Shown here in pieces: positions 20,307 through 35,910 of a stretch of DNA of 48,156 nucleotides. Location: the NCBI GenBank assembly GCA_044352715.1, contig JBILDG010000001.1, positions 1-48,156 on the forward strand. The letters run 5' to 3'. Each line of letters starts with the position of its first letter. The stretch's first letter is position 1. The notes below the pieces were generated by a model. It did not search any database. It was not told the origin of the DNA and worked only from the letters and a program-made list of their open reading frames with translations. This DNA comes from Chthoniobacterales bacterium (lineage in GTDB: Bacteria; Verrucomicrobiota; Verrucomicrobiia; Chthoniobacterales; JACTMZ01). Made by a program: the position numbers and the translations under genes.

Positions 20307-20340
20307 TAACGATCCTGCCAAAACCCAGCACGATTGCGCC
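20307..20340 (-). promoter_or_regulatory. Bipartite direct-repeat element, copy e-minus (faces the GH99-like gene)
   Basis: The minus strand reads GGCGCAATCGTGC-TGGGTTTT-GGCAGGATCGTTA. After 22 nt comes TACAGT (20284..20279), then GATCAA, then ATG 20272. Confidence 0.6.
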
Positions 20341-20355: not shown

Positions 20356-20389
20356 GGCGGAATCGTGCTGAGAAATGGCGCAAATGTTC
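20356..20389 (+). promoter_or_regulatory. Bipartite direct-repeat element, copy e-plus (faces the large GH-like gene)
   Basis: The plus strand reads GGCGGAATCGTGC-TGAGAAAT-GGCGCAAATGTTC. After 23 nt comes TACAAA (20413..20418), and 8 nt later an ATG at 20427 that opens a mini-ORF. The main ATG is at 20474. Confidence 0.45.
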
Positions 20390-20473
20390 CGGCGCCGCTT
20401 GGGCCCCCGTGTTACAAAGAGATCTCATGACCACACCCACCATTTTCACCGGCTGCATCCGGCACCCGAACCC

Positions 20474-23400
20474 ATGAGCCACCGGAAGCGCGGCGTCCTG
20501 TTTGCTTGGACAGAATGGCAGAACCCGTCCGCCGCTTACCGGGGCAAACCATTCTGGAGTTGGAACGGACACCTCGATCCCTCCGAGCTGATACGGCAGA
20601 TCGGCATTTTCCAGGAGATGGGCATGGGCGGATACTTTATGCACTCGCGCACCGGTCTGCAGACGCGCTACCTCGGCCCCGAGTGGTTCGATGCGATCAA
20701 TGCCTGCGCGGATGCCGGACAGGCGCGCGGTTTGGAATCCTGGCTCTATGACGAAGACCGCTGGCCGAGCGGCTCGGCGGGCGGGCTGGCCACGAAGGAA
20801 TTGCGGCATCGCATGAAATACCTGCGGCTGACCGTGCACGAGAGCGGCGAGACGCACAATTGGCCTGCGGCGGAACATTTCGTCGCCGCCTTCAGCGCCA
20901 AAGTGAGTGGCCTTGACCTCGGACCCTACCGCCGCGTCGAGTGTGGAGCCCGCGCTTTTCCCGGCGAGCAGCTGCTCGTTTTTGCGTGGGAATACATGCG
21001 CGAGCATTCTTTCTACAACGACACCGCTTACCTCGACACGATGGACCCCACGGCCACGGAGAATTTTCTGCGGGTGACGCATGATGCCTACCGCGAGGCC
21101 TGCGGCGAGCGGCTGGGGACGAGCATCCGCGGGATTTTCACGGACGAACCACATCGCGGGTTCGTTTTCTGTTCAAGCCACGGGCAACCCGGGGTGCCGG
21201 ATCCGGGTTGGACCACGCCTTGGACCCACGCCCTGCCGGAGGCGTTCGCGGCGGCATTCGGCCACGACCTCATCGACCGGCTGCCGGAATTGTTCCTGCG
21301 TTCGGACGGGCAACGCCTCTCGCCGGTCAAGTGGGCCTACATGGAAATCTGCCAGCGCCTCTTCCTCGAAAATTGGGCGCGGCCGATGCACGAGCGGTGC
21401 CGTGATCTCGGGCTCTTGCTGACGGGACACGTGCTGCACGAAAACAGCCTCGCCGCCCAGGCGGTGCCCTGCGGATCGATGATGCGCTACTACCCGTATC
21501 TCGATTACCCCGGCATCGACATCCTCGGCTCGCGCAACGAATGCCATTGGGTGATCAAACAACTCTCCTCGGTCGCGCGGCAGTTCGAACGTCCGTGGAT
21601 GCTCTCCGAGCTTTACGGTTGCACCGGATGGCAGACCGATTTCACGGACCACAAACGCATCGGCGACTGGCAGGCGCTCTTCGGCATCAATGTGCGTTGC
21701 CACCACTTGAGCTGGTATTCCATGGCGGGCGAAGCCAAGCGCGATTTCCCGGCCAGCATTTCTTTCCAGTCCGCGTGGTATCCGGAATACGCCGCGGTCG
21801 AGACCTACTTCAGCCGCCTGCATGTCGCCCTCACCGCAGGACGTCCGGTCTGCGATGTGCTGGTCATCAATCCGGTGGAAAGCACGTGGGCCCAGATCCA
21901 TGTCAACTGGGCAACGTGGTTGCAAGCGACCGACCCTGACGTGGAAGCGCTGGAGAAAACCTACGCGACCGTCTTCGCCGCGCTGGCCGGAGCCCAGATC
22001 GATTTCGACTACGGCGATGAGGCGCACCTCGCGGAACACGGTTCTGTCGATGCGACCAAAGCGACGCTACGGCTTGGAGCCATGCGCTACCGCGTCGTGG
22101 TCGTCGCCGGCGCGGAAACTCTCCGCGGATCCACCCTGCGATTGTTGCAGGAGTTTCGCCGGGCCGGGGGCATGGTAATCTTTGCCGGAGCGCCGCCGAC
22201 TCACTTGGATGCCCTGCCCTCGCCCGAGCCGGCGGAGTTCGCCATCAACGGTCCGACCGCACTGATCGATGGTCCGGCGCTGGCTGCCATGGTGCGAGAG
22301 CACAGCCCTGCCGCCCGCCAGCTCACGCTCGGCGAGGAAGGCGCGGGTCTTTTCTGTCAGATGCGGACCGACGGCAACACCTTCACCGCAGTGCTGCTCA
22401 ACTCATCGGACACACGTAACTATGACACCGTGACATTGCGCTGGCATCATTCCGGACCGGTGACCGAACTCGACGCACTGACCGGTCAGGCGGTCGCGGT
22501 TGAGACCATTCCCGAAGATGGCGGCATTTTGCGTTGGACGACTTCGTTCCGTCCTTTGCAGGAACGTATTTTCGTCTGCGGCGCGGCCGTGCCAGACGCC
22601 AAGCCCGCCGCCATGACTGCCATAGGACGAACCGAAGTTCTCGCGGGAGACTTTGCTTACACGCTCGACGAACCGAACATCGCGGTGCTCGACACGGCGG
22701 AGTTTTCCCTCGACGGCGGGGACTGGGAGGCAGCGCAGGAAATTCTCCGTGTGGAAAAATCTTTGAGCGAGCGCTTGGGAATTCCCCTGCGCGGTGGGCA
22801 GATGGTCCAACCATGGGCTCGGGAGGAATCCACGACCAACGGGGGAACCCAGTTGACTTTGCGCTTCCGCTTCGAGGTAGAGCATCTGCCAAAGTCGCCC
22901 GTCCAGCTGGCCCTCGAGCAACCCCATGAGTTCTCCATCACACTCAACGGCAAAAACATCCCGGCACCCTCGGGCGACGCATGGTTCATCGATCCATGTC
23001 TGTGCACCGTGACGCTGCCGCCCGACGCGCTGCAAACCGGGACCAACATTCTCGAGCTGCAATGCCGCTACCACGAAGGCATCGACCTCGAAGCCGTTTA
23101 TCTGCTGGGCTCGTTCGGTGTACGTCCGGGACCGGGCTCGCGCGTGACGCTGACGGAACTTCCGCCGCGACTCGGCGTGGGAGACTGGACGCGGTGCGGA
23201 TTGCCGTTTTATTCCGGGCGCATCCGCCTGCAACTGCCCGTTGGTTCAGCCCGAGGCCTCGCGTTGTCCCCGCAAGGTGCTGCCACGCTGGTGGCGCGGA
23301 ACCCCGCGAACGGGAAATCGCAAATCCTGCCGTGGGCACCATTCGCCTGCGATCTTGAAGGGTTGGTTGATGATCAGAGTATGGTCGAAGTCGAATGGGT

Positions 23401-23557
23401 CCTGACGCGACGCAATACCTTCGGCCCATTGCATCTCACGCCCATCGAACAACCGGCCATCGGTCCCACCCACTTCCGGAGCGAGGGCGACGAGTGGTCC
23501 GATGATTACCAACTCGTGCCTGTCGGACTCGAAAAATCCCCAATCCTCGAATCATGA
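20474..23557 (+). CDS. Large glycoside-hydrolase-like protein, about 1027 aa, no signal peptide (GH106-like is only a guess)
   Basis: Start at MSHRKRG (ATG 20474). The N-terminus reads YRGKPFWSWNGHLDPSELIRQIGIFQEMGMGGYFMHSRTGL...WLYDEDRWPSGSAGG...GIFTDEPH. It shares the motifs GGY, WL.D(D/E)..(W/Y)PSG.AGG and RG.(F/Y)..(D/N)EPH with the gene at 32921..35155. Confidence 0.6.
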   Translation: MSHRKRGVLFAWTEWQNPSAAYRGKPFWSWNGHLDPSELIRQIGIFQEMGMGGYFMHSRTGLQTRYLGPEWFDAINACADAGQARGLESWLYDEDRWPSGSAGGLATKELRHRMKYLRLTVHESGETHNWPAAEHFVAAFSAKVSGLDLGPYRRVECGARAFPGEQLLVFAWEYMREHSFYNDTAYLDTMDPTATENFLRVTHDAYREACGERLGTSIRGIFTDEPHRGFVFCSSHGQPGVPDPGWTTPWTHALPEAFAAAFGHDLIDRLPELFLRSDGQRLSPVKWAYMEICQRLFLENWARPMHERCRDLGLLLTGHVLHENSLAAQAVPCGSMMRYYPYLDYPGIDILGSRNECHWVIKQLSSVARQFERPWMLSELYGCTGWQTDFTDHKRIGDWQALFGINVRCHHLSWYSMAGEAKRDFPASISFQSAWYPEYAAVETYFSRLHVALTAGRPVCDVLVINPVESTWAQIHVNWATWLQATDPDVEALEKTYATVFAALAGAQIDFDYGDEAHLAEHGSVDATKATLRLGAMRYRVVVVAGAETLRGSTLRLLQEFRRAGGMVIFAGAPPTHLDALPSPEPAEFAINGPTALIDGPALAAMVREHSPAARQLTLGEEGAGLFCQMRTDGNTFTAVLLNSSDTRNYDTVTLRWHHSGPVTELDALTGQAVAVETIPEDGGILRWTTSFRPLQERIFVCGAAVPDAKPAAMTAIGRTEVLAGDFAYTLDEPNIAVLDTAEFSLDGGDWEAAQEILRVEKSLSERLGIPLRGGQMVQPWAREESTTNGGTQLTLRFRFEVEHLPKSPVQLALEQPHEFSITLNGKNIPAPSGDAWFIDPCLCTVTLPPDALQTGTNILELQCRYHEGIDLEAVYLLGSFGVRPGPGSRVTLTELPPRLGVGDWTRCGLPFYSGRIRLQLPVGSARGLALSPQGAATLVARNPANGKSQILPWAPFACDLEGLVDDQSMVEVEWVLTRRNTFGPLHLTPIEQPAIGPTHFRSEGDEWSDDYQLVPVGLEKSPILES

Positions 23558-24975
23558 AGCGTCACCCCAATATCCTTTTCATCAATCTCGACCAGATGCG
23601 CTACGACTGCCTGGGTTTCACGGGGCATCCGCTCGTCAAAACGCCGCACCTCGACGCCTTGGCGCGCTCGGGGATGCGCTTCGAGTCGGCCTACACCCCG
23701 TTCCCCGTCTGCGCACCGGCCCGGCAGACCTTGCTCACCGGCGTGATGCCCGAACAGCATGGCGGACTGTGGAACTTCGACCGCGGCGGCGGCCTGCCCA
23801 TCGGCGCTGCGGTGACCGCGGATCATTCGATCTGGGTGCAGCAATTGCGCGACGCCGGTTATCGCACGGCTTACCTCGGCAAATGGCATGTCCATCCCGA
23901 GGCCGATCCCACCGCCTACGGCTACGAAACCTACATCGAGCCGCCAACCAACGCCTACCGGCCGGAAAATCAGCAGCGTAAGTATGAGCTGGCCGATGAT
24001 CCATGGCCCGAGTTCCCCGTCGGGGCAGTCTCCACCCTCGATCTCGACCAAAGCGACACGCACACGTTGGCCGCCGAGTGTTGCCGCCTCATCGAGGAAT
24101 TCGGCAACGGCGGCGCGCCATGGCACATCCGGATCGATTACAACGAGCCGCATCTGCCGTGCCTGCCGAGCGAGCCTTTTGCCTCGATGTATCCGCCGGA
24201 ATCGATCCCAGCATGGGAAAATTTCGGCGACACCTTTGCCGGGAAACCCTTCATCCAGCAACAGCAACTCCGCAACTGGCGCATCGAAGCGTGGACATGG
24301 CGCGAATGGTCCATCTACCTCTCCGGATACTTCGGGATGATCAGCCAATTGGACGACGCCATTGGGCGGATCATCGAGGAACTGCGCTCCCGCGGGCTGA
24401 TCGACAACACCCTGATTATTTTCACCACGGACCACGGCGATGCGGCCGGCAGCCATCGCATGATGGACAAGCATTGCGTGATGTATGAGGAGGAGGTGCA
24501 CGTGCCGCTCGTCTGCTCGTGGCCCGGCGTCATTCCGGCCGGTGGCGTCTGCCGCGATTTCATCAGCCACTTTCTCGATCTGCCGGTGACCTTGCTCGAA
24601 CTGACCGGACTGTCCGTGCCCGCGCGTTATCAAGGACGCAGCTTCTTGCCGCAACTCGAGGGACGCGCCTCGGACGACCCGCGTCCCCTCGCCTTCAGTT
24701 CCTACAATGGTCAGCAGTTCGGCCTCTACTGCCAGCGCATGGTCCGCGACCGGAAATACAAATACGTGTGGAATGCCACGGACATCGACGAATGCTATGA
24801 CCTCGAGAACGACCCGCACGAGTTGGTCAATCTCGCCGCGGACGAACGCCACGAGGAGCTGTGCCGCCGCTACCGGCGAAAAGTCTACGACGTCTTCTCC
24901 GCCCTGAAAGATCCGCTCGTTTTGAGCCGCTGGAACGAGCGCTGGCTGCGCGACGGCACGACTTCCGCGAAATGA
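23554..24975 (+). CDS. S1-family sulfatase without signal peptide (predicted cytoplasmic)
   Basis: MKRHPNILFINLDQMRYDCLG starts directly in the sulfatase core. The motif is PVCAPARQTLLTG. An ATGA overlap joins it to the upstream gene stop (23554..23557). Confidence 0.85.
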   Translation: MKRHPNILFINLDQMRYDCLGFTGHPLVKTPHLDALARSGMRFESAYTPFPVCAPARQTLLTGVMPEQHGGLWNFDRGGGLPIGAAVTADHSIWVQQLRDAGYRTAYLGKWHVHPEADPTAYGYETYIEPPTNAYRPENQQRKYELADDPWPEFPVGAVSTLDLDQSDTHTLAAECCRLIEEFGNGGAPWHIRIDYNEPHLPCLPSEPFASMYPPESIPAWENFGDTFAGKPFIQQQQLRNWRIEAWTWREWSIYLSGYFGMISQLDDAIGRIIEELRSRGLIDNTLIIFTTDHGDAAGSHRMMDKHCVMYEEEVHVPLVCSWPGVIPAGGVCRDFISHFLDLPVTLLELTGLSVPARYQGRSFLPQLEGRASDDPRPLAFSSYNGQQFGLYCQRMVRDRKYKYVWNATDIDECYDLENDPHELVNLAADERHEELCRRYRRKVYDVFSALKDPLVLSRWNERWLRDGTTSAK

Positions 24976-26420
24976 AAACCATTCCCACCCTGCTCGCCGT
25001 CACCGGCGCACTGCTGACGACAGCCTTGGCCGCAACGAAGGACCGTCCGCCCAACATCGTTTTCATCCTCACCGACGATCTCGGCATTTCCGACCTCGGT
25101 ATCTACGGCAGCGATTACCACCTGACGCCTCGCTTGGATCGCCTCGCGGCGGAAGGAATGCGTTTCACCAACGCCTACGCGGCTTCGCCGGTGTGCTCGC
25201 CGACGCGGGCGTCCATCCTGACCGGACAGTATCCGCACCGCTTGCACCTGACCGACGCTTTGCCGTGGGACCGGTTGCCGGAAAACCCGCGGTTCGTCCC
25301 ACCCAACCACCTCAAGGAACTGCCCGCCTCCGACGCCACGTATGCGAAGTCCCTGCGCGAGGTCGGCTACCGCACCGCCCTTTTCGGCAAGTGGCACCTG
25401 GGCAACGAGCACGAGTTCTTTTCCGGCGGCCGCCATAGCGACTACGGCTTCGACGAGGCCTTCGACGCGGATTACCAAAAAATCAACAATGTGGACAAAG
25501 GCGTGGACACTCTCACGGAGCAAGCGCTCGGCTTCATCGAAAGCAATCGCGACCGCCCCTTTATGCTGGCCCTGCACCACCACACACCACACGTCCCGCT
25601 GGCCGTTCCCGCCGAATACCAGAGCCGCTATAACAACGTTCCGCCGGGCCAAAACCAGCAGGACAAGCAATATGCCGGCATGATATCCCATCTCGACGAT
25701 GCGGTGGGACGCCTGCTCGACAAACTCGACGAGCTGGATCTGACCAACAACACCATCATCATTTTCACCTCCGACAACGGTGGCCTGAGCGCAAAAACGA
25801 GCAATCTCCCTTACCGCGAAGGCAAAGCCACGCTCTATGAGGGTGGGATCCGTGTGCCGCTCCTCGTGCGTTGGCCCGCACAGATCAAACCCGGATCGGT
25901 GTGCGAGGGCGTCACAGTCAGCACCGATTTCTTCCCGACTTTTCTCGAGACGGCCGGGCTGCCATTACAACCGGACGCCCACCTGGACGGACAGAGCCTG
26001 ATCCCGTGGCTGCGCGGGGAAAAGCCCGATCCAACCCGCACGGTCTACTGGCACGTGCCCCACTACCGGCACAAAGGTCCGCAATCCGCCGTGCGCGACG
26101 GTGACTGGAAACTCATCCACAACATCGAGACGGACACGCATGAGCTCTACGATTTGGCCAACGATCCCGGCGAAGCGAACGACCTCGCGGCCGCGCAAGC
26201 CGAACGGACCAAGGAGCTGGCCGCCAAGCTCGAAAGCCATCTCGCCGAATCCAAAGTCCAACGCCTATGCCCGAATCCCAACTGGGACGCGAAGAAACCC
26301 CGCGGCCGCGTGTGGGAAATGGGCGTCTTCTATCCCAAGCAGGGTGGCGCCTTCCAACAGGTCAAAGACCGCGACTATCCCGCGTGGTTCCAGCACGCGG
26401 AGCCGGCGCGAAAACCCTAG
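24972..26420 (+). CDS. S1-family sulfatase (secreted)
   Basis: Start at MKTIPTLLAVTGALLTTALA (ATG 24972, ATGA overlap with the previous stop). Core PPNIVFILTDDLGISDLG and motif SPVCSPTRASILTGQYPH. Confidence 0.88.
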   Translation: MKTIPTLLAVTGALLTTALAATKDRPPNIVFILTDDLGISDLGIYGSDYHLTPRLDRLAAEGMRFTNAYAASPVCSPTRASILTGQYPHRLHLTDALPWDRLPENPRFVPPNHLKELPASDATYAKSLREVGYRTALFGKWHLGNEHEFFSGGRHSDYGFDEAFDADYQKINNVDKGVDTLTEQALGFIESNRDRPFMLALHHHTPHVPLAVPAEYQSRYNNVPPGQNQQDKQYAGMISHLDDAVGRLLDKLDELDLTNNTIIIFTSDNGGLSAKTSNLPYREGKATLYEGGIRVPLLVRWPAQIKPGSVCEGVTVSTDFFPTFLETAGLPLQPDAHLDGQSLIPWLRGEKPDPTRTVYWHVPHYRHKGPQSAVRDGDWKLIHNIETDTHELYDLANDPGEANDLAAAQAERTKELAAKLESHLAESKVQRLCPNPNWDAKKPRGRVWEMGVFYPKQGGAFQQVKDRDYPAWFQHAEPARKP

Positions 26421-26475
26421 CCGGTTTGGCCCTTCCGCCCTGCGCGCGTAGTTTCCTGCATCTGCTCGGCGGTCA

Positions 26476-28050
26476 TCATGGAGTGGATTCGCTGGCCGCG
26501 GCTTGCGGATTGATGAACATGAGCGCGTCGATATCGGGATCGGTGACGTAGTTGCGCGGGTCCTTGGCCTGGTCGTTCTCGTAAGGATCGAAGGTCCCCT
26601 TGCCGCGGTCGGACATCCAGTTTTTGCCGGGTTTGTGGTCGGGATTCGGCGCGGGCATTTGCGCGCCGATCGCCTTGAGGTGCGCGGCGAGCCACTCCTC
26701 CATTTGACGCACCTTCTCGGGATGTTGGGCGGCGAGGTCGCTTTTCTCGCCGGGGTCTTGCGCGAGGTCGAATAGTTCGGCGCCACCATCCTCGTAATGT
26801 TTCACGAGCTTCCAGTCGCCGTGACGGATCGCGCTGTGGGGCGGAAGCGTTTGGTAGTGCGGATAGTGCCAGTAGAGCGTGTCGCGCGGCAGGGTGTCGC
26901 CACCCGCGAGCAGCGGGGCGAGGCTGAGCCCGTCGAGATGTTGCTCCGGCCGGAGCGGCAGACCGGCCATGGCGAGGAAGGTCGGGTAAAGATCGTTGCT
27001 GATCACCGGCACGTCGCACACCGATCCGGGCCGGGTGACGCCCGGCCAGCGGATGATCAACGGCACGCGAATGCCGCCCTCGTAGCACTGGGATTTCCCC
27101 CCGCGGTAAGGCAGGTTGCTGGTGGCGGTCACGCGCTTGTTTGTTTTCTCGTCCTGCACCGCGTCCAACCCGCCGTTGTCGGAAAAGAAAACGACGGCGG
27201 TATTCTCCGCGAGCCCGAGGGCAGCAAGCTCATCGAGGACGCGTCCCACGGCCGCATCCATGCGGGCGACCATCGCCGCCATCACGGGGTTATCCTGGCC
27301 GTTCGGGCCGGGCGGTTTGTCTTGGAATCTCGCGATCCATTCCGGCTGCTCGTAGAGCGGCACATGCACTTGATCGAGCGACAAAACGGCGAGGAATCGG
27401 TCCTTCTTGTTCTTTTCGATGAACTGAAGAAAGGCGTCCGTGTATTCACCGATGGCTTGGGGGTCTTGGTAGTTCTTTTTCCAGACGTTCCGCCCCGGCT
27501 GCACCGTGCCGAACCCGTGCTGGCCGGGGTTTTCCCCGCCGGCGTATTCGCTGTCAACGTGCCACTTCCCCACATGGAAGGTGGCAAAGCCCGCGTCGGC
27601 CAGAGCCTCGGCATAGGTCGTTTCGCTGCGGCGGAGATACCTGATCCAATCATGCGGGCCGAGGAGCTTTGCCGTCGGGGGGGTGTTTCCCGGAATGTAA
27701 GAGCTCAGGTGGATGCGCGCTGGATAGCGTCCGGTGAGGATGCTGGCCCGCGTCGGCGAGCAGACCGGGTGCGCGGCGTAAGCTTGGGTGAATCGCGTGC
27801 CTTCCGCGGCCAAGCGGTCGAGATTCGGGGTCTCGTAATATTTGCTGCCGTAGCAACCGAGATCCATCACACCGAGGTCATCCGCGAGGATGAACACGGT
27901 ATTGCGCACGGGCTCGGGTGACTCCTCCGCAGCCAGGACCGGCGTCAGACCCGCGGCCAGCAACGCGTGCAGAAGTCGCAGGGGCCGCAGCCCGGCCGCG
28001 GGAATTTTCCCGTTGGGAGCGCGGCGCGCGAGAAAGCTGATCGCAGTCAT
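26476..28050 (-). CDS. S1-family sulfatase (secreted)
   Basis: Start at MTAISFLARR (ATG 28050, ATGA overlap with the MFS stop at 28047). Core VRNTVFILADDLGVMDLG and motif HPVCSPTRASILTGRYP. Confidence 0.88.
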   Translation of the reverse strand: MTAISFLARRAPNGKIPAAGLRPLRLLHALLAAGLTPVLAAEESPEPVRNTVFILADDLGVMDLGCYGSKYYETPNLDRLAAEGTRFTQAYAAHPVCSPTRASILTGRYPARIHLSSYIPGNTPPTAKLLGPHDWIRYLRRSETTYAEALADAGFATFHVGKWHVDSEYAGGENPGQHGFGTVQPGRNVWKKNYQDPQAIGEYTDAFLQFIEKNKKDRFLAVLSLDQVHVPLYEQPEWIARFQDKPPGPNGQDNPVMAAMVARMDAAVGRVLDELAALGLAENTAVVFFSDNGGLDAVQDEKTNKRVTATSNLPYRGGKSQCYEGGIRVPLIIRWPGVTRPGSVCDVPVISNDLYPTFLAMAGLPLRPEQHLDGLSLAPLLAGGDTLPRDTLYWHYPHYQTLPPHSAIRHGDWKLVKHYEDGGAELFDLAQDPGEKSDLAAQHPEKVRQMEEWLAAHLKAIGAQMPAPNPDHKPGKNWMSDRGKGTFDPYENDQAKDPRNYVTDPDIDALMFINPQAAASESTP

Positions 28051-29528
28051 GGCTTGGCCGCCCGCCGTTCGCGCAGGAGGGCTTGGATTTCCCTCACCCG
28101 TTCGCGGCTGAGACGGTAGCGGCTGAAAACGATCATGGCCGCGATGATGCAAGCGCTGGGGAAGAAGGCGATGAATAGACGCAGGCGGGTCAACGACTCC
28201 GGCGTCATCTTGTCGGCCCCGGCATCATAACCGATAAAGACCAGCGCGTAGCCGAGGGTGAAGGCGATGCCGGTGAACCCCAGCTTGACCACGAAGCCGA
28301 AGAAGGACGCAAAAATGCCCTCGCGACGGTAACCGTGCTGGAGTTCATCCTCGTCGCAGATATCGGCAAGGAAGGCACCGTTGAGCAGCCAGACGGCGGT
28401 CATGCCCCCGCCCATGAACACCGCGAGCACCAGCTGGAGCGCCGGCCAACCGGGGCGCAGCAGGAACCACGAACTCATGATGGCCAGCGCGGACAGCGCC
28501 ATGCCGGAGAGCAGAACCGTCTTTTTGTCGAAGCGACGCACGATCCGCGGGATAACGAACGTGGCAGCCAAAAGGGAGACAGCGGACGTGGTGCCGTAAA
28601 AACCGTTCCAGGTGGCACCGCTGCTTTTGTCGCCGCCGAAGATGTAAAAGATGTTGGCGTAGATGATCAGCGCCCCCATGAAATACACGCCGCAAATGAC
28701 GAAGAAGATCATCAGGCACAAGGTGCGGAACGAGCGGTTTTGCAGGGCCAGTTTGCCGGAGTGCAAAAGGTGGAGCTTGGCCTGGTCATGGACCTTCAGC
28801 CGTTCGCGGGCGAAGAGGGCGACAGGCAACGCGGTGACGGCTATAACAATTGCCAGCGCCCAAGCCAGGTAGCGGATACCCAGCACCTCGACTTTCACGT
28901 CGTCACTGGAGGCCATGTGCACGACCGGATGGAAGAGGAAGGAATACCAAGCGGTCTGGCCGGAAACGACAAACTCGCGGATGAATTCACCGGCACTCAG
29001 GCAAGCCTTGTAGAGCCACGGCAGGAGAAAAGCGGCCGCCGAGGCGAAGATCATGCGGTATTTCTGGACGTCAGCCCGCTCGTCGTAGTCCGAGGTCAAC
29101 TCCAGCCCCAGCGCGTAGTAGGGCACGGAAAAAACGGTATACATCAGATAGAAGAAGACGCAGGCCGTGACGGCATACGCGAAAAGGGCGGAATTTTCCC
29201 AGTAAGGCGACGCCATGTAGGAGACACCGAAGGCGAAGGCCATGAGCAATCCGCCGGCAAAAATGAACGGACGCCGCCGCCCGAACCGGCTGCGGCTGTT
29301 GTCCGAGATGTTCCCCATCACGGGATCGGAGATGGTGTCGAAAAACCGCGGGATAGCCACCGCCCACCCGACGAGGACGGAACTGAGGCCGAAGCCGATG
29401 TTGTAGATGGGGACAAAGAGAGTGTTCAGGCCGTTGGTCGCCATTTGCTCGCTGAAACCACCGAGGCCCCAGGCGATCTTTTCACGTCTCGGCAAGTGGG
29501 CGGCGCGGTCGTCGTGGGAGTGGGACAT
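28047..29528 (-). CDS. MFS transporter, GPH cation symporter family (paralog of 2953..4419)
   Basis: DTISDPVMGNISDNSRSRFGRRRPFIFAGG is the same signature as in the other GPH gene. The protein is polytopic, 493 aa. Confidence 0.85.
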   Translation of the reverse strand: MSHSHDDRAAHLPRREKIAWGLGGFSEQMATNGLNTLFVPIYNIGFGLSSVLVGWAVAIPRFFDTISDPVMGNISDNSRSRFGRRRPFIFAGGLLMAFAFGVSYMASPYWENSALFAYAVTACVFFYLMYTVFSVPYYALGLELTSDYDERADVQKYRMIFASAAAFLLPWLYKACLSAGEFIREFVVSGQTAWYSFLFHPVVHMASSDDVKVEVLGIRYLAWALAIVIAVTALPVALFARERLKVHDQAKLHLLHSGKLALQNRSFRTLCLMIFFVICGVYFMGALIIYANIFYIFGGDKSSGATWNGFYGTTSAVSLLAATFVIPRIVRRFDKKTVLLSGMALSALAIMSSWFLLRPGWPALQLVLAVFMGGGMTAVWLLNGAFLADICDEDELQHGYRREGIFASFFGFVVKLGFTGIAFTLGYALVFIGYDAGADKMTPESLTRLRLFIAFFPSACIIAAMIVFSRYRLSRERVREIQALLRERRAAKP

Positions 29529-29554
29529 AGATCAGGGCGCGGCGGGTGGTCTTT

Positions 29555-31387
29555 TCAGCGAAGGATCAATTCCACGGGATCCAAGGTCCAATCGTTGATC
29601 TCGCGAATGTTGCGGCCTCCGCTCCAGCCGAGAAGGATCTTCGCCTCGCCGGAACCTTTGGCGCGGTCCCAGCGGATTTCGACCGCACCATCCGGGGTCT
29701 TCGTGGCCTCGATCCACTCGTTGCCCGTCAGCACGACCGCGCTGGTCGCCACGGGCTCTCCTTTTTCATTCAGCAGTCGCACTTCACGCGTGCCGCGATC
29801 CTCATCCAAAGACAGGACCGCTTCTTCCAGTTTCAGCGCGGCTGGACGCGTCGGGGGCGCCTTGTCTCTCCGCGGGGTGCGCGGGGAGCCGGTGAAGTTT
29901 TCGTTGCGCAGAGGGATGAGGGCATCGGATTCGCGCAGGTGGTTTTCGATGAGAGCATCCAACGCGCGCACACGCTCGGGCCGATAGGCAGCCAGATTGA
30001 CCGCCTCGCCCGGATCGGCCGCCAAATCATAAAGCTCGTAATGGTGCGTGCCGGGTTCATCGCCGGCCCAGAAGAAGCGCAGAAGTTTCTCGTTCCCCAG
30101 CCGCACCGCGGACGAAGGTGCGCAGAGAATGCCGAAGCGGGAGGGAAAATCGAAAAAGAGCGGACGCTCCGGCAGGGAACCTCCGTCGAAAAGCGGACGC
30201 AAGCTCACACCGTCGACCGCTTGACCGGCGGGTAAAGGCACCCCGGCGTAATCGAGGATGGTCGGAAACAGGTCGGTCGACACCACGGGGACGTTGGAGA
30301 CCGTGCCGGGCTTGATGTGTCCGGGATATGCCACCACCCAAGGCACGCGCACCCCGCCCTCGTAGGTGTTGGCCTTGCCGCCGCGCAGCGGGCGGTTGGA
30401 GGTGACTTGTCGGCCGTTGATCTCGTCATGGATGACCCCGCCGTTGTCGGAGAGAAAGACAATCAGCGTGTTGTCGCGCAGAGCCTTGTTTTCCGGCTGG
30501 TCGAGGTAATCGAGCAAGACACCGACGCTCTGGTCCAGACTTTCCACCATCGTGCCCATGACGGGCGAATCGTGGAGGCCGCGCGGGTCTTTTTTGCCGC
30601 GGTATTTCTCGAGCAAGTCCTTGCGCGGGATGTAGGGCGAGTGCACCGCGTAAAGCCAGAGGTTGAGGAAGAACGGCCGATCCGAGTCCTTGACTTGGCC
30701 GATCCACTTCACCGCTTCCTCGACCAGGCGGTTGTCGAGATGCTCGCCCTCAGGACCCGCTTCTAGGCCGGGGATTTCGCTGCGGCGCTCTTGCTTGTTT
30801 TGCGGCCTGTTCGCATACGGGGAATAAAAATCCGGCGGACCCGGCGCATGGTTGCCGCCGATAACATAGTCGAACCCACGCGCTCCCGCATCGTAAGTCT
30901 CGGCGTTTTCCTCCACAGCATTGCCCGGGCGGCTGAGGTGCCACTTGCCGATGTGTGCCGTCTGGTAGCCGCTCTCCTTGAGCAGATCAGCCAGGGTACG
31001 CAGGTTGGCCGGCAGGTGATCGCGCGTCCGGATATCACCGACGTAACTCCCGTTCTCCGGAGGCAGCGCCGCGGGTTCGAAGACCTGACGCTTGGCCGTG
31101 ATGGCCTCGGTCAGGCGCAATCGCGCGGGCGATTGACCGACCATGATGCTGGCCCGCGTGGGTGAACAGAGCGGACTGGCCGCATAGCCGTCCGTGAAAC
31201 GCATTCCTTCATTGGCCAAACGCCGCAGGTTCGGCGTTTCATAATAGCCGGGCCCGTCCAGATCCGTGTCGGCCCAGCCGAGATCGTCGGCGAGGATAAG
31301 GATGATATTGGGGCGGTCCGCGGCGACCGCCGGGCAGACCAGAAAGAGAGCGGCGGCCAACGAAGACCAAATCAGGCGGGGAAACAT
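29555..31387 (-). CDS. S1-family sulfatase (secreted) with an extra C-terminal domain of about 117 aa
   Basis: Start at MFPRLIWSSLAAALFLVCPAVAA (ATG 31387). The ORF-track extension to 31960 overlaps the upstream gene. Core RPNIILILADDLGWAD and motif SPLCSPTRASIMVG. The tail follows a P/R-rich linker: ...LKLEEAVLSLDEDRGTREVRLLNEKGEPVATSAVVLTGNEWIEATKTPDGAVEIRW... Confidence 0.85.
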   Translation of the reverse strand: MFPRLIWSSLAAALFLVCPAVAADRPNIILILADDLGWADTDLDGPGYYETPNLRRLANEGMRFTDGYAASPLCSPTRASIMVGQSPARLRLTEAITAKRQVFEPAALPPENGSYVGDIRTRDHLPANLRTLADLLKESGYQTAHIGKWHLSRPGNAVEENAETYDAGARGFDYVIGGNHAPGPPDFYSPYANRPQNKQERRSEIPGLEAGPEGEHLDNRLVEEAVKWIGQVKDSDRPFFLNLWLYAVHSPYIPRKDLLEKYRGKKDPRGLHDSPVMGTMVESLDQSVGVLLDYLDQPENKALRDNTLIVFLSDNGGVIHDEINGRQVTSNRPLRGGKANTYEGGVRVPWVVAYPGHIKPGTVSNVPVVSTDLFPTILDYAGVPLPAGQAVDGVSLRPLFDGGSLPERPLFFDFPSRFGILCAPSSAVRLGNEKLLRFFWAGDEPGTHHYELYDLAADPGEAVNLAAYRPERVRALDALIENHLRESDALIPLRNENFTGSPRTPRRDKAPPTRPAALKLEEAVLSLDEDRGTREVRLLNEKGEPVATSAVVLTGNEWIEATKTPDGAVEIRWDRAKGSGEAKILLGWSGGRNIREINDWTLDPVELILR

Positions 31388-31425
31388 CAGGAGGCTACTA
31401 AAGCACAATCCACCCCACCCTTCCC

Positions 31426-31459
31426 GCACGATCCAGCCAAAAAGGAGCACGATTTCGCC
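31426..31459 (-). promoter_or_regulatory. Bipartite direct-repeat element, copy f
   Basis: The minus strand reads GGCGAAATCGTGC-TCCTTTTT-GGCTGGATCGTGC. After 23 nt comes TTTAGT (31402..31397), and 9 nt later ATG 31387. Confidence 0.6.
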
Positions 31460-31481
31460 AAGCAACCCCGGAAGGCGTGGA

Positions 31482-32924
31482 TCATGCTCGCGTTCTTCCG
31501 CCGACCAGATCGATCGGTCGCCCCGGAAATCCCGCTTCCCGCGTGTCCTCCGGCCGACGGCCGTCTGGCATGCGATAGCGCTCCGCCAGCGAATCCACAT
31601 CGACACCCCCCGGATCCCCGTAGTGGTCCATCCATTGCTGCGTGAGTTTTTCCATCCGCTCCTGCAAGGCGGTGTGCGCAGGGTCGCCGTAAAGATTGCG
31701 CAGTTGAAATGGATCCCCTTCCCGCGCGTAAAGCGCACGGACCGGAACCTTGCGCAACACCGCGCGGCCATTTTCGTCGCGCTGCCAGTGCGCCAACTCG
31801 CCGCGGCCGTAGCTGTGCTCGCGGGTGTAGACGCCATTCCAGGAAGGCTGGTGGAAAAAGAGGGGCACGGATTCCACGGCATCATCGTCGTGCTCGCGGA
31901 TGGCCCGTGAGAGATCGCGGCCCTCGCAGGTTGCCGGCACGGAGACCCCCAGCAAACCAAGCAGGGTGGGCATTAGATCCAGCGTCCCGACCAGCAGATC
32001 GCTCATCCGGCCGCGAGCTTCGCCCGGCAGATGCACGAGGAGCGGGACGCGCACGGAGGTGTCCTCGGGATGATCCTTCGAGATGGTGTAACCGTAGGAG
32101 TGTAAGTTGTCGCCGTGATCCGAAGTAAAGACAATGAGCGTATTGTCATAGTGACCGCGCGCCTTGAGTTGGTCGATGAGACGCCCGAAGGCGCGGTCGA
32201 TGCCGCTGCACATCGCGTAGTAGCCATGGTAGGCGCGTCGGATTTCCGGGGTATCCTCCGCGCTGGGACGCAGACGGATGGTCGCCGGATCATAGAGATC
32301 CATCAGATCCTGCTTCGTGCCGTAATCGAAGGTCATGGTTTCCGGGTCGAAGCCGACATCGTGCGGTGGATGCCACGAGACAAAGAGCGCGAAGGGTTCG
32401 TCCGCCCGGCAGGTATCGAGAAATTGCACCGCCTGCCGCGCCTGCCCGTCTACCTCCCATTCGTCGAAGAAAACTTTCAGTCCTTCCTTGTCCCAGTAGT
32501 AGCAATGCCCCGGACGGTAATCCATGTGGCAGTTGTTGCTCAGGAAGGTTTCGTCGAACCCGTGCCGTAGTGGACCCGGCGGCACCGGCCGGTCGCGGTT
32601 GCCGCCGAGCAGATGCCATTTGCCGACATAGGCGGTGCGGTAACCGGCCGCACCCAAGGCCTGCGCAAACGTCGTGCCGTTGTGGGCCAGCAGCGGAAGA
32701 TCATTGTGCAGCGCGCCGTGGCGGAGCGGATGCTGTCCGGTCAGCAGCATGCCGCGGTAAGGGGTGCAGACCGGACTGCTCGAAATGCAATGGTCGAACC
32801 GGATGCTCTCCGAGGCGAAGGCGTCGAGGCGCGGCGTTTTGATGTCCGCGTTGCCATAGCAACCGAGCATGTCCCGCGACTGCTGGTCGGTGAAAACGAA
32901 AAGAAGATTGGGACGCGCGTTCAC
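31482..32924 (-). CDS. S1-family sulfatase without signal peptide (predicted cytoplasmic)
   Basis: (GTG)NARPNLLFVFTDQQSRDMLG starts directly in the core. The motif is SPVCTPYRGMLLTGQHP. A GTGA overlap joins it to the upstream gene stop (32921..32924). Confidence 0.85.
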   Translation of the reverse strand: MNARPNLLFVFTDQQSRDMLGCYGNADIKTPRLDAFASESIRFDHCISSSPVCTPYRGMLLTGQHPLRHGALHNDLPLLAHNGTTFAQALGAAGYRTAYVGKWHLLGGNRDRPVPPGPLRHGFDETFLSNNCHMDYRPGHCYYWDKEGLKVFFDEWEVDGQARQAVQFLDTCRADEPFALFVSWHPPHDVGFDPETMTFDYGTKQDLMDLYDPATIRLRPSAEDTPEIRRAYHGYYAMCSGIDRAFGRLIDQLKARGHYDNTLIVFTSDHGDNLHSYGYTISKDHPEDTSVRVPLLVHLPGEARGRMSDLLVGTLDLMPTLLGLLGVSVPATCEGRDLSRAIREHDDDAVESVPLFFHQPSWNGVYTREHSYGRGELAHWQRDENGRAVLRKVPVRALYAREGDPFQLRNLYGDPAHTALQERMEKLTQQWMDHYGDPGGVDVDSLAERYRMPDGRRPEDTREAGFPGRPIDLVGGRTRA

Positions 32925-35155
32925 TGCTGCTGCAGCAGCATGCTGCGCAACGGGCCGATCTGCAACGGCAGCGGCGCGGTCGCTTCGCGGATTTCGCCCG
33001 TGGTCGGATCCATCACGGTGACCGGGCCGCTGCCGCCCACCTGCACGGCGAGGTCTTGTTCCTTCTTGTTCATGACGAAGTAGATTTTCTTCCCGTCGCG
33101 GTGGAAACGCGCCACGCCGAGTTCCGCTGTGCCGGGCGTGAAGGTCAGGTCGAACGCCGGACTGTATGCTTGCCCGATGAGCGCGGGAAGTTCACCGGCC
33201 GCCATGGGACGGGCGGCAGCCAGGGCTTGGCGGACCGCTTCATCATCGCGCGCGTAGAGGGCGGCCGAAGGAACCTCATCCACCCATATCACCTTTCCCC
33301 CGGCAGCTTCGAAAGCCTCGATCTTGCGGAGGACATCGAAGGGCAGCAGGTCCGTCGGCGGGATGACCAGCACGCGATAGGAACCGCGCCCGATGCGGAG
33401 GCGACCGTCTTCGATCGCCGCTTCGGCCACGGCCTGCGGGTGGACGACACTGAAGTCGATGTCGGCCGACGTGAGCGTTTCATCGATGGTTTTCCACGGC
33501 TTCTCGAAATCGGCGAATTCCTTTTGCAGTTTGCTCCAGTGCCGGTTGGTCGGACGATACAGGCCCTGGAAGCGGGAGATGGGATAATAGACGGCCACCT
33601 CGTTCTCCCGTCGCGCCCCGCGCAGGACCAGCGAGAGACGGCCGATGTATTCATTGAAAGCGCGGAATTCCTCCGGTGTGTAACCGGCGGCCTTGCGGCC
33701 GCGTCCTCCAGCGTCCGGGGTGTCGACCGGATCGAGCGGGAGGTAGGAGGAAAACGAATTCACGCCGTGGAAAAACAGCCAGTTGGCCGAGTTGAGCAGC
33801 AACGGAATCTCCGGGGAAAGTCGCTTCATGCCGCCGCCGGCGATGATTGGATCGAGCAGGACGATCACTTCGTCGCGGTCCTTCCATTCCGCGATGGAGC
33901 TGCAGAAACGGGCTTGCTCATAGTGGAAGGAATCGAAGCGGTCGCGGTTGGGGATACCGATGTCCATGGCCGGCACGTCGAACTCGGCCGCGAAGAGCAG
34001 CAGGTCCCCGTAACAGGGCACGTGCAGCGAGGGATACTCGTCGTGCAGGAAATGGCCGCTGGAGGAAACACCGCGCGCCTCGCACCATTTGTGGATTTGC
34101 TCGGCGAAGTTGGCGCGGAGCAATTCGGCGACCGTCTGGTGGAAATGCGTGCGCACCCGGCGCGACTCGAGATCGTCGCCCGCGAAGAGACGCGGCAACT
34201 GTGGCATCAGGTCGTAGCCGTGCATGGCCGCAAACTTGGCCGGGATCTCCGCGTTCCACGACACGCAGGCAAACGGGCCATCGGCCATGATCCAGTGCAA
34301 CTGCATGAGGTGCGGCTCGTTGGCGTAAAAGCCTCGCGCCTTCTCCTGCAGCGCGCCGGATTCGACGGAGATCGGCGTGTGCATGATCTCGAGGAAGCTC
34401 TTTACCGCGTCGGGATTGAGCAGGTCGGGATAGCGCCCGCTGTGTTTGAATTGGGCCATGGTGCTCTGCGCTTGGACATCGCGGTCGCGAATGACGGTGA
34501 AGAAGGCGTGCAGTTCCCACGGTCCATCCACTCCTTCGGCGGTGACTTTCCCGTTCTCCACGTTGACCGTGGCTCCCTCCGCCGGTTGCAAGCCATCGGG
34601 AGTCACGCGATAAAGCGCGGCCGAGACGAAGCGCTCCGCGCCTGGGGGCAGGTCGATGTTCGCCGGGACAATGCCCTCCCCTTTTTGGCTAACCGTGGCC
34701 AGACCCCGCACTTCGTATTCCGGATTTTTTTCCACGACCTTGCCGCCCGCCATGCCGCTCGGGTAGCCGAAGTCATCGGCCAGCCAGACCGGGGCGTCCT
34801 GCTCCTGCGCTCGGGCCAGGAGAGGCCCGATGTTCTTTCGCCCATCGGGCCCCGATTGATAGAGTTCACCGTGGAAAAACGCCATGTAGCCGCCGATGCC
34901 GTATTCGGGATATTGCTTTAGCGTTTTGTCTTTCAGCCCGTATTTGATGAGCCGGTAGTTGTTGGGCGGATCGGCGAATTCTTTGGCGAAAGTCTCCTCT
35001 GCAGTGACAGGCGTAGCCGCTGCCGCGGGCGTCGCGTCTGCCACCGGTTCCTCGGATGAAGCGAGAGACTCGGCGGGAGGACGGGAACAAGCGGTCACCA
35101 TGCCCAAGGCCAGCGCCGCGAAAAGAATTCGTCCGGTGAAGAGAAGGAGATGCAT
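32921..35155 (-). CDS. Large glycoside-hydrolase-like lipoprotein, paralog of 20474..23557 (family unassigned; GH106-like is a guess)
   Basis: Start at MHLLLFTGRILFAALALGMVTAC (ATG 35155, lipobox-like). The TTG at 35206 lies inside regulatory element c. Shared motifs are GIGGYMAFFHG, WLADDFGYPSGMAGG and RGFYANEPH. Confidence 0.6.
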   Translation of the reverse strand: MHLLLFTGRILFAALALGMVTACSRPPAESLASSEEPVADATPAAAATPVTAEETFAKEFADPPNNYRLIKYGLKDKTLKQYPEYGIGGYMAFFHGELYQSGPDGRKNIGPLLARAQEQDAPVWLADDFGYPSGMAGGKVVEKNPEYEVRGLATVSQKGEGIVPANIDLPPGAERFVSAALYRVTPDGLQPAEGATVNVENGKVTAEGVDGPWELHAFFTVIRDRDVQAQSTMAQFKHSGRYPDLLNPDAVKSFLEIMHTPISVESGALQEKARGFYANEPHLMQLHWIMADGPFACVSWNAEIPAKFAAMHGYDLMPQLPRLFAGDDLESRRVRTHFHQTVAELLRANFAEQIHKWCEARGVSSSGHFLHDEYPSLHVPCYGDLLLFAAEFDVPAMDIGIPNRDRFDSFHYEQARFCSSIAEWKDRDEVIVLLDPIIAGGGMKRLSPEIPLLLNSANWLFFHGVNSFSSYLPLDPVDTPDAGGRGRKAAGYTPEEFRAFNEYIGRLSLVLRGARRENEVAVYYPISRFQGLYRPTNRHWSKLQKEFADFEKPWKTIDETLTSADIDFSVVHPQAVAEAAIEDGRLRIGRGSYRVLVIPPTDLLPFDVLRKIEAFEAAGGKVIWVDEVPSAALYARDDEAVRQALAAARPMAAGELPALIGQAYSPAFDLTFTPGTAELGVARFHRDGKKIYFVMNKKEQDLAVQVGGSGPVTVMDPTTGEIREATAPLPLQIGPLRSMLLQQQ

Positions 35156-35191: not shown

Positions 35192-35239
35192 TGACGATTC
35201 CGCCAATTTTCAGCACGATTCGGCACCAACGATTCCGCC
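35192..35239 (-). promoter_or_regulatory. Bipartite direct-repeat element, copy c, plus an extra upstream repeat
   Basis: The minus strand at 35225..35192 reads TGCCGAATCGTGC-TGAAAATT-GGCGGAATCGTCA. A third repeat, GGCGGAATCGTTGG, lies at 35239..35226. After 24 nt comes TACTTT, then TACCCG, then ATG 35155. Confidence 0.6.
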
Positions 35240-35265: not shown

Positions 35266-35838
35266 TTAAGACGAAGGCGTGACTTCGATGGTGACGTTGC
35301 CGATGCCGGGGTATCCCTTGACCGCCCAAAACTGGATGGTCACCCACGTGCCGGCCGGCACCTTGGTCGCCACCAGGCGCTGGGCGCCGGCGGCTTGGAA
35401 GCTCTGCTTGGCCAGAACGGGATCCCCCCCGTTCGCGCGGGCGTTGACGATCGCCGCTCCCATCCAGAACTCCTCCTCCCCGAAGCCAACAGTGTCAAAG
35501 GTCAGCGTGACATCCGACATCTCGGCCAAAACGCCGAGTTCCTGCTTGAAGGCGTAGAACTCCGGCTTGAGCCGACTTAGCACGCGCAGGTTGGCTGCGA
35601 TACCGGCCGCCCCCATCTTGCGCACGGTGTAAAAGTCACTGTCTTGATCCTGCGGCGGGGCTGCCGTCCAGCCTGTCGGAACACCAGAGTACCAACCCGG
35701 ATGCTGGAGGGGGGACAAACCATCCATGTTGCTGAAGTCACCGTTGATCACGGCCAGCGCGTCGTCCTCTGCCGCGGTGGCAGAGACTAACGCAAGAACA
35801 CCAAGAGCAGGGACAAGGAGGAGGGAACGAATGCTCAT
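35266..35838 (-). CDS. Small secreted protein, CBM/DUF642-like jelly-roll (family guess)
   Basis: 190 aa. The signal peptide is MSIRSLLLVPALGVLALVSATAA. It is followed by VINGDFSNMDG...GW...VTLTFDTVGFG...WVTIQFWAV...NVTIEV. Confidence 0.6.
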   Translation of the reverse strand: MSIRSLLLVPALGVLALVSATAAEDDALAVINGDFSNMDGLSPLQHPGWYSGVPTGWTAAPPQDQDSDFYTVRKMGAAGIAANLRVLSRLKPEFYAFKQELGVLAEMSDVTLTFDTVGFGEEEFWMGAAIVNARANGGDPVLAKQSFQAAGAQRLVATKVPAGTWVTIQFWAVKGYPGIGNVTIEVTPSS

Positions 35839-35876: not shown

Positions 35877-35910
35877 GCACGATTCCGCCAAAATCCCGCA
35901 CGTTACCGCC
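35877..35910 (-). promoter_or_regulatory. Bipartite direct-repeat element, copy d (best match to the consensus)
   Basis: The minus strand reads GGCGGTAACGTGC-GGGATTTT-GGCGGAATCGTGC. After 24 nt comes TAGATT (35852..35847), and 8 nt later ATG 35838. It begins 10 nt downstream of the AraC gene stop. Confidence 0.6.

Follow-up and report, generated by a model that had tools for sequence, protein, structure and literature searches.

Two glycosidase-sulfatase gene pairs in a Chthoniobacterales contig as probable operon heads of one cluster for a sulfated, rhamnose-rich glycan

The Chthoniobacterales contig JBILDG010000001.1 (assembly GCA_044352715.1) is 48,156 nucleotides long and was analysed whole; we call it the window. 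It belongs to a 2.0-Mb, 299-contig genome that is 83% complete, and the same DNA is present in many lake-water metagenomes. The window carries two large glycosidase-like genes, GH1 and GH2, each overlapped by a gene for a sulfatase that lacks an export signal, S1 and S2, respectively. In an initial annotation these pairs had been viewed as copies of one duplicated two-gene module. Our findings instead suggest one co-regulated cluster for the use of a sulfated, rhamnose-rich and probably acetylated glycan, with this region as its core and the two pairs as two operon heads of a single pathway. We give this reading a probability of roughly 60%.

All four genes exist where they had first been placed. 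On the plus strand, GH1 (20474..23557; 1027 amino acids) and S1 (23554..24975) share the letters ATGA, read directly as ...gaatcATGAagcg at 23554-23557, and contigs of three other lake metagenomes span this junction with 0-1 differences. On the minus strand, GH2 (32921..35155; 744 amino acids) and S2 (31482..32924) share GTGA, read as ...cagcaGTGAacgc at 32924-32921. In four lake runs, some contigs lack 3 nucleotides at 32924, within a CAG run that codes for the QQQ at the C-terminus of GH2 and falls in the overlap with S2. The start codons chosen for GH1 and GH2 also fit the lengths of close homologues, which are 1027 amino acids (P0005, 99% identical) and 743 amino acids (P0125, 96% identical). 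The longest open reading frame (ORF) of GH1 runs from 20375, a start that we rejected because it falls within a promoter repeat and the homologues have 1027 amino acids. For GH2, with a longest ORF from 35206, an ESM Atlas record begins at V38 (position 35044, residue 38 being read as M). This start is judged less likely than 35155, because the signal and lipobox are conserved in orthologues and the distance from promoter repeat to ATG fits 35155. Calling the gene from V38 would delete the lipoprotein signal.

By its motifs, GH1 is predicted to belong to the Ram106B type of GH106, whose members are intracellular alpha-L-rhamnosidases. Its N-terminus, MSHRKRGVLFAWTEWQNP, is without a hydrophobic stretch, and a signal-like N-terminus occurs in one of the 17 members of its family (signal peptides and lipoboxes were judged by eye throughout). 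The portions of PMC6828813 available to us describe four characterised Ram106B enzymes, from Thermotoga maritima and Thermotoga neapolitana, Caldicellulosiruptor bescii and Thermoclostridium stercorarium. They are intracellular, metal-dependent GH106 rhamnosidases of 116-121 kDa without signal peptide, and among the p-nitrophenyl substrates assayed they act on the alpha-L-rhamnoside alone. The supplement of that paper prints the alignment blocks EDKWPSGF(A/G)GG, THE.Y..CG...GIFTDEP, TGH.MAE, KQ.SS.A.Q...VL(C/S)E(T/L)(F/Y)G, DWQA and PHLS, and the Glu of the fourth block is equated there with the catalytic base E593 of BT_0986 (Tm E335, Ts E386). All printed blocks are found in GH1 by a motif comparison with the printed rows, as distinct from a computed full-length alignment. 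GH1 carries YDEDRWPSGSAGG, THDAYREACG...GIFTDEPH, LTGHVLHE, KQLSSVARQFERPWMLSELYG and GDWQA, all of them invariant across 17 GH1-family sequences. By the same comparison the proposed base would be E412 (ORF numbering) in MLSELYG, also invariant in 17 of 17, and an Asp-Glu pair is found in GIFTDEPH (D-E for D458-S459 of BT_0986), plus YDEDRWPSGSAGG.

In motifs, size and absence of a signal peptide, GH1 thus resembles the Ram106B enzymes. Unlike GH1, these come from thermophilic Firmicutes and Thermotogae and are encoded beside ABC transporters, and no sulfatase partner is mentioned in the portions of that paper drawn upon here. GH1-type proteins are widespread: hits exceed 4000 and come from Verrucomicrobiota, Paenibacillus, Clostridia, Armatimonadota and other groups. 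Most homologues of both GH1 and GH2 carry a precomputed hit to the Pfam GH106 family PF17132, and an ESM Atlas search led to GH106-labelled clusters. GH1 itself scores 33.5 bits on the NCBIfam BT4145 equivalog, for which the cut-off is 1300, and a PDB sequence search with GH1 alone returned nothing relevant.

S1 and S2 both look like functional, complete Cys-type formylglycine sulfatases, with scores on PF00884 of 141.9 and 175.5 bits, respectively (cut-off 25). Their top PDB matches are carbohydrate exo-sulfatases (7oz8 and 6pt4 for S1; 2qzu, 8di0 and 6j66 for S2). The canonical formylglycine motif is C-x-P-x-R-x3-L-T-G. The contexts VCAPAR and VCTPYR had been described as atypical, and these sequences are indeed present, yet CAPARQTLLTG of S1 and CTPYRGMLLTG of S2 both match the canonical motif, so that neither active site is atypical at its defining positions. 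Both proteins also have GKWH, together with TDHGD in S1 and SDHGD in S2. The absence of an export signal, in contrast, is borne out: both proteins begin at the catalytic core. Upstream starts do not reveal signal peptides, since each ORF already begins at the first ATG, GTG or TTG after a stop. The open frame around S1 is 16 codons longer than the gene (489 vs 473), and that of S2 extends 89 codons further, through a stretch free of start codons that lies inside the conserved GH2 C-terminus. Among the 29 near-full-length sulfatase ORFs of the genome, three start at the core in this way: S1, S2 and a gene on contig C299 (7142..8641). All three have a rhamnosidase-type or an MFS_2 importer gene as a neighbour. 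The gene on C299 (locus L227, 7142-10176) directly follows an MFS_2 importer and adjoins a GH78-like gene, the same logic as in the window.

GH2 is predicted to be an exported, lipoprotein-anchored protein from an exported family. Its N-terminus, MHLLLFTGRILFAALALGMVTAC, is a lipobox-like signal, and signal-like or lipobox N-termini occur in 16 of 18 GH2-family members, several with the lipobox Cys. The initial annotation was therefore right about an asymmetry between a cytoplasmic-looking GH1 and a lipoprotein-like GH2. On PF17132 GH2 scores 36.6 bits (gathering score 29), and on the BT4145 equivalog 52.5 bits (cut-off 1300). Compared with the PDB, the GH2-family profile best matches the classical GH106 enzymes RHA-P (6q2f) and BT_0986 (5mqm; also 5mwk). 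GH2 shares three collinear stretches with these enzymes and retains the D-D-x-x-P-S-G and N-E-P-H blocks, and its FFHG-type segment resembles the BT4145-type row of the alignment printed in PMC6828813. Unlike them, it is some 350-400 amino acids shorter and has Leu instead of Glu at the column of the catalytic base, and the matches reach E values of 4e-6 (6q2f) and 2e-3 (5mqm). GH2-type proteins occur mainly in Verrucomicrobiota, Kiritimatiellota and Lentisphaerota; in a phylum sample of 400 genomes, a close GH2 match was present in two genomes other than this one. A 1249-residue homologue (P0157) was considered as a fusion of glycosidase and sulfatase and ruled out, its extra part being an N-terminal PATR-like region.

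The two pairs share their promoter signal. As the initial annotation had noted of a "bipartite element", both are preceded by a pair of GGCGGAATCGT-like direct repeats with a spacing of 21 base pairs (bp). We find five such pairs, all with 21-bp spacing and each facing its downstream gene. The pair ahead of GH1 (20356..20387, plus strand) reads GGCGGAATCGT and, 21 bp on, GGCGCAAATGT. The others are on the minus strand. Ahead of a divergent gene for a WbsX-family (PF14307) protein, GGCGCAATCGT is followed 21 bp on by GGCAGGATCGT (20309..20340), 36 nucleotides from the WbsX ATG. Ahead of GH2 there are three copies (35194..35239, the third at 35239), the proximal pair (35225-35194) being 38 nucleotides from the GH2 ATG. 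The gene for a secreted hypothetical protein is preceded by GGCGGTAACGT and, 21 bp on, GGCGGAATCGT (35879..35910). Between the stop of S2 and the start of an exported sulfatase, S_C, lie GGCGAAATCGT and, 21 bp on, GGCTGGATCGT (31428..31459). At each of these promoters except that of GH1, 36-40 nucleotides separate the proximal repeat from the start codon, which supports the signal-bearing GH2 start at 35155.

Exact copies of GGCGGAATCGT number six in the 2.0-Mb genome, four of them in three intergenic sites of the window, and copies with at most one mismatch number 10 in the window against 2.1 expected. GH2 orthologues with 80-99% identity retain the repeat pair upstream amid diverged flanks; ahead of those with 53% identity or less it was not seen. 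An AraC-family gene (35921..36973, minus strand; cupin sensor and HTH_18) ends 10 nucleotides before one repeat site, and its product is a candidate binder of the repeats. Activators of the AraC/XylS type bind direct repeats two helical turns apart, as at araI1-araI2. The likeness to such systems lies in 11-bp direct repeats 21 bp apart just upstream of genes, with an AraC-family gene adjacent; the differences from the textbook case are that both repeat and regulon are lineage-specific and that binding is here something we infer. A possible leader ORF of 16 codons, MTTPTIFTGCIRHPNP (20427..20477, plus strand), opens at the first ATG at this distance, 40 nucleotides past the GH1 repeat pair, and ends with an ATGA that contains the GH1 start codon. 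In related strains the stretch from about 20397 to 20505 reads differently, and for this reason the ORF is left as an observation.

The genes between and around the two pairs fit this arrangement of promoters. The probable transcription units are WbsX (19067..20272, minus strand, divergent from GH1 and without signal peptide); GH1-S1-S_B; the hypothetical gene (35266..35838, minus strand; 190 amino acids with a signal peptide, and matched by no Pfam or NCBIfam family); GH2-S2; and S_C-MFS_b-S_D. S_B (24972..26420, plus strand; signal MKTIPTLLAVTGALLTTALAA), S_C (29555..31387, minus strand; 610 amino acids, signal MFPRLIWSSLAAALFLVCPAVAA) and S_D (26476..28050, minus strand) are exported sulfatases, the first two with clear signal peptides and S_D with a signal-like N-terminal extension ahead of the core. 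MFS_b (28047..29528, minus strand) is an MFS_2 sugar symporter of the glycoside-pentoside-hexuronide type. Overlaps of four nucleotides of the ATGA type occur at four junctions, namely GH1/S1, GH2/S2, S1/S_B (at the S1 stop, 24972-24975) and MFS_b/S_D (at the MFS_b stop, 28047-28050), and the overlap is therefore a trait of operons, not of glycosidase-sulfatase pairs. At S1/S_B and MFS_b/S_D, genes of different compartments are translationally linked. In one lake metatranscriptome run (X24), contigs that are 90-99% alike cover portions of S1, MFS_b, S2 and GH2; because these contigs come from relatives and the library may contain DNA, they show neither transcription nor operon structure.

Sulfatases of the S1 and S2 types recur beside GH1-type genes in two phyla. 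We compared 80 GH1-type loci, with flanks up to 5 kb, and 68 GH2-type loci, among which the metagenome loci are mutually non-independent, and built a sulfatase tree whose 78 rows are sulfatases of this genome and of those loci. The S1 clade (support 99) holds the window gene, genes directly downstream of a GH1-type gene in two Verrucomicrobiota loci (L014, L022), and genes directly upstream of one in Paenibacillus hemerocallicola (L020) and Paenibacillus cymbidii (L032). The S2 clade (support 99) holds the window gene, genes directly upstream of a GH1-type gene in L014, L016 and L022, and a gene 1.5 kb downstream of one in L020. In P. hemerocallicola the order is GH78, solute-binding protein, S1-like, GH1-type, AraC, S2-like, solute-binding protein and sulfatase; in P. 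cymbidii it is S1-like, GH1-type and GH78-like. Since the two clades stand beside GH1-type genes in two phyla and in different orders, inherited synteny alone is insufficient as an explanation.

Locus L228 of the Verrucomicrobiota genome G096 has in a single direction GH2 (47% identical), two S_C genes, MFS_2 (54%), S2-like (35%), GH1 (43%), S1 (65%) and WbsX (59%). Here an importer gene precedes three signal-less enzymes. L022 and G096 are counted as one, because they have the same gene order and matching percent identities for the S1, S2-like and S_C orthologues. WbsX homologues at 59-60% adjoin S1 orthologues in G096 and in another genome, G203, and WbsX may act in the pathway as a further enzyme of the cytoplasm. 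A signal-less WbsX gene accompanies the S1 orthologue in three of three genomes (window 19067-20272; L228 201-1319; L230 4719-5834).

GH2-type genes keep different company. The most frequent neighbour clusters of the 68 GH2-type loci are sulfatases (27), MFS_2 (11), N-methyl proteins (5), true GH106 (4), SASA esterases (4) and WbsX (4). Downstream of the GH2-type gene, a same-strand sulfatase starts within 200 nucleotides in 13 of the 43 loci with enough DNA. By nearest window paralogue these are S_E in four, S_C in three, S_B-like in two, S2 in two, S1-like in one and another type in one, and the two S2 cases are a near-identical relative (L101; GH2 85%, S2 94%) and a 36% fragment. Upstream, a sulfatase is found in 14 of 60 loci, eight of S_C type. 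S_C orthologues are the commonest sulfatases beside GH2-type genes elsewhere, S_B orthologues are present in GH2-type loci at 52-58%, and S_C, S_E and S_B all bear signals. Among the loci in the sulfatase tree, no S1- or S2-clade member from outside the window stands beside a GH2-type gene, and the GH2-S2 pair recurs in the near relative L101 only. The usual companions of GH2 are thus sulfatases with a signal, of types also found in the window, and the GH2-S2 pair is lineage-specific. The proposal of a conserved glycosidase-sulfatase pair survives for GH1-type genes, in Verrucomicrobiota and Paenibacillus, and is not supported for GH2 with S2.

What the sequences show is gene structure, homology, missing signals, recurrent neighbourhoods and a repeat with its specificity within the genome; substrate, order of reactions, compartments and the link between regulator and repeat are inferred in the following two-compartment pathway. 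Outside the cytoplasm, GH2 would act with S_B, S_C, S_D and other sulfatases, with SASA and GDSL esterases and with other glycosidases to cut the polymer down. MFS_2 symporters would then import sulfated rhamno-oligosaccharides. Within the cytoplasm, S1 and S2 would remove sulfate from the sugar at the non-reducing end, each probably at a different position, after which GH1 and a signal-less GH78 enzyme would release rhamnose. The AraC-family regulator would switch on the five promoters through the direct repeat (GGCGGAATCGT twice, 21 bp apart). The window holds genes that would suit these roles, including a GH78 alpha-L-rhamnosidase without signal peptide (688..2946, minus strand), which follows the MFS_2 gene MFS_a (2953..4419, minus strand), SASA and GDSL esterases, and SDR and enolase-superfamily genes that fit deoxy-sugar acid catabolism.

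Several observations weigh against this pathway. The sampling of the sulfatase tree was biased to glycosidase neighbourhoods, and a reverse search was therefore run on the 400-genome phylum sample. Outside this genome, a GH1- or GH2-type gene was found within 1.5 kb at one of 17 S1-like loci and at one of 29 loci that carry the best S2-like gene of their genome, and both positive loci belong to one genome, G096. Those S2 orthologues that are closest (45-50%) lack such a neighbour at this distance. In G203, a GH2-S_C pair is followed 16 kb on by S_B, S2-like, sulfatase, AraC, WbsX and S1, with no GH1-type gene, and the S1 orthologue (65%) follows the WbsX gene instead. Of the GH1-type loci, 70 of 80 are without a sulfatase ORF in their flanks. 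Over all 80 loci, the most frequent neighbour clusters comprise sulfatases in nine loci (10 by hidden Markov model), ABC permeases in seven, two GH78 clusters in six each and AraC in six. The sequence evidence has its own weak points. GH1 scores 23.6 bits on PF17132, below the gathering score of 29, and motif blocks are the basis of its Ram106B assignment. In a profile-profile alignment, which is possibly shifted at this point, L450 of GH2 stands opposite E412 of GH1, so that GH2 is without the Glu of the GH106 base column; an invariant D452 lies two residues past L450, in an inserted segment. To mature Cys-type sulfatases in the cytoplasm, an enzyme of that compartment would be required. The maturation genes in the genome are an FGE (292 bits) and an anSME fragment of 123 positions at a contig end (C130 4-375), and the FGE (C229; L174 920-2002), with its lipoprotein-like N-terminus KKLLLPLLALSGGC, looks exported. 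Signal-less sulfatases are also not surprising in themselves, because they are common in related bacteria; in Kiritimatiella glycovorans, according to the parts of PMC5148204 available to us, just 35% of sulfatases carry signals. Finally, the pathway presupposes that lakes contain a source of sulfated rhamnans.

Part of this evidence would suit an alternative in which the genes are co-regulated neighbours only and a sulfatase follows each glycosidase through an accident of gene order, the adjacent enzymes working on different bonds or stages with no specific glycosidase-sulfatase step. Sulfatases are plentiful here, nine of the 34 sulfatase-like ORFs of the genome lying on this 48-kb contig, and the 4-nucleotide overlaps at S1/S_B and MFS_b/S_D, the varying sulfatase type beside GH2-type genes, the outcome of the reverse search and the scarcity of sulfatases at GH1-type loci would all be expected from it. 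However, the same two clades adjoin GH1-type genes in two phyla with differing order, S1-like genes lying downstream in Verrucomicrobiota and upstream in Paenibacillus, and all three signal-less sulfatases of the genome accompany rhamnosidase-type or importer genes. We consider this alternative unlikely, although it is the most serious of those weighed.

Alternatively, the logic of the pathway could be as proposed and its chemistry different, with GH1, GH2 or both acting on another sugar, such as sulfated fucose, or with S1 and S2 acting on an ester other than sulfate, as certain formylglycine enzymes do. The remoteness of GH2 from GH106, with the base Glu absent from its column, allows for this, as do phosphonate monoester hydrolases among the PDB matches of S1 and S2 (E 1e-25 to 1e-32). 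The deoxy-sugar acid genes and a GH65C-like/GH95-like enzyme of the window would suit fucose too, and fucose-directed sulfatases are described as common in related metagenome-assembled genomes (MAGs) in the portions of PMC8857213 consulted. Nevertheless, the Ram106B motifs of GH1 point to rhamnose, given the substrate range recorded for that type; GH78 genes accompany GH1-type genes here and elsewhere, and true GH106 genes stand in four of 68 GH2-type loci. A change of chemistry is thus improbable.

The initial annotation had proposed a duplicated glycosidase-sulfatase module, each copy performing a coupled exo-acting step on one linkage type, and the phylogenies speak against it. GH1 and GH2 are homologous (BLASTP 25% over 675 amino acids, E 6e-30; between profiles, 24% over 640 columns with probability 99.9 and E 8e-36), GH1 having about 350 extra C-terminal residues, and the motifs cited as evidence of paralogy are present in both. 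They are not, however, each other's closest relatives. In a tree of 51 sequences (quick IQ-TREE, LG+G4, long branches flagged), the 17 GH1-family and 18 GH2-family rows each lie on one side of a branch with support 100. Other Verrucomicrobiota subfamilies stand between the two families, and a third paralogue in the genome (on contig C89), outside the GH1 family, is nearer to GH1 than GH2 is. Each of the two has orthologues at 45-50% in other phyla. GH1 and GH2 are two old, separate families.

S1 and S2 are 29% identical, and each scores at least as well against another paralogue of the genome as against its counterpart; their clades are not sisters and join only in an unresolved group of 17 rows (SH-aLRT 91) that includes other paralogues. 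The partners are thus neither sisters nor do their trees mirror each other, as co-duplication would have required, and on these sequences the two units are not copies of one module. Homology of the glycosidases, a signal-less sulfatase following each through a 4-nucleotide overlap, the common promoter repeat and the shared 17-row group are what such a duplication could claim, but with families so distant, sulfatases no closer to each other than to further paralogues, other S2-clade members flanking GH1-type genes, GH2-type genes elsewhere flanked mainly by S_C, S_E and S_B types, and GH2 predicted to be exported while S2 is not, we regard it as very improbable. A joint step of GH2 and S2 on one linkage is likewise unlikely, because GH2 is predicted to be outside the cytoplasm and S2 within it.

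Sulfated deoxy-sugar polymers are degraded slowly, and which sulfatase removes which sulfate is mostly unknown. Parts of the present picture have precedents. Rhamnosidase genes among sulfatases, and signal-less sulfatases in such bacteria, are already described: GH78 and GH106 genes lie amid sulfatases, with fucose and rhamnose catabolism, in Verrucomicrobiota MAGs including Puniceicoccaceae (PMC8857213) and in freshwater MAGs (PMC5615132). In the portions of these two papers available to us, a split between exported and intracellular GH106-like proteins, two signal-less sulfatase clades and the promoter repeat are not mentioned. An enzyme of ulvan degradation that joins GH78 and S1_25 domains desulfates a non-reducing Rha3S and then removes the rhamnose, as reported in the sections of PMC8360166 that we draw upon. 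This Formosa agariphila protein (PDB 6hr5), which matches S1 over its full length (E 6e-37) without being the top match of S1 or S2, follows the same logic of exo-sulfatase and then rhamnosidase. It differs in that the activities are fused and the glycosidase is a GH78, whereas here the genes are separate, the glycosidase is of GH106 type, and both activities are predicted to be cytoplasmic. Searches of the open-access literature found neither the pairing of Ram106B-type GH106 with two signal-less sulfatase clades in two phyla, nor the separate exported GH2 family, nor the five-promoter repeat. The phrase "cytoplasmic sulfatase" was absent from the papers listed, such a pairing for sulfated rhamnose was described in none of the titles and abstracts, and "Ram106B" appeared in a single paper.

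It is possible, although we lean against it, that a broader set of claims holds jointly. First, a cytoplasmic desulfation route may be shared across phyla, comprising an importer, two dedicated signal-less sulfatase clades, probably for different positions of rhamnose, a Ram106B-type GH106 and a GH78, with sulfate released inside the cell and not in the periplasm. Second, the GH2 family may constitute an exported family of glycosidases that is new and descends from GH106, with an Asp taking the place of the Glu base. Third, given the fixed distance of 36-40 nucleotides from repeat to ATG, the promoters may give leaderless or near-leaderless mRNAs, with GH1 translated through the coupled 16-codon leader. 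If the main reading given at the outset is right, part of desulfation would be cytoplasmic and follow import, in Gram-negative and Gram-positive bacteria alike. That reading would also provide two expressible sulfatase clades with a defined glycosidase partner, the Ram106B type of GH106, and would suggest a natural substrate class for that type, for which the natural substrate is still to be found according to the passages of PMC6828813 consulted. Cultured organisms for tests would be Thalassobacterium sedimentorum, Pelagicoccus mobilis and Paenibacillus hemerocallicola, and the promoter repeat would be a simple handle on the regulon.

Other features of the window lie outside these units. Between a LacI-family regulator and WbsX, a PIN-domain gene with a small upstream ORF (18205-18621) has the look of a VapBC-like toxin-antitoxin pair within the sugar-use cluster. 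Past the AraC gene (36001-48156), G+C falls from about 0.62 to 0.53-0.58; encoded in this part are GntR, SDR and enolase-superfamily proteins, along with esterases, one sulfatase and two large proteins that match no Pfam family (44773-46866 and 46863-47996). Both in the window (7129-10622) and on contig C89 (1-588, 4125-4805), GH106-like and sulfatase genes have as neighbours proteins with N-terminal methylation (pseudopilin-like) signatures and proteins of the PEP-CTERM/PATR kind, and the N-methyl proteins are the ones counted above in five of the 68 GH2-type loci.

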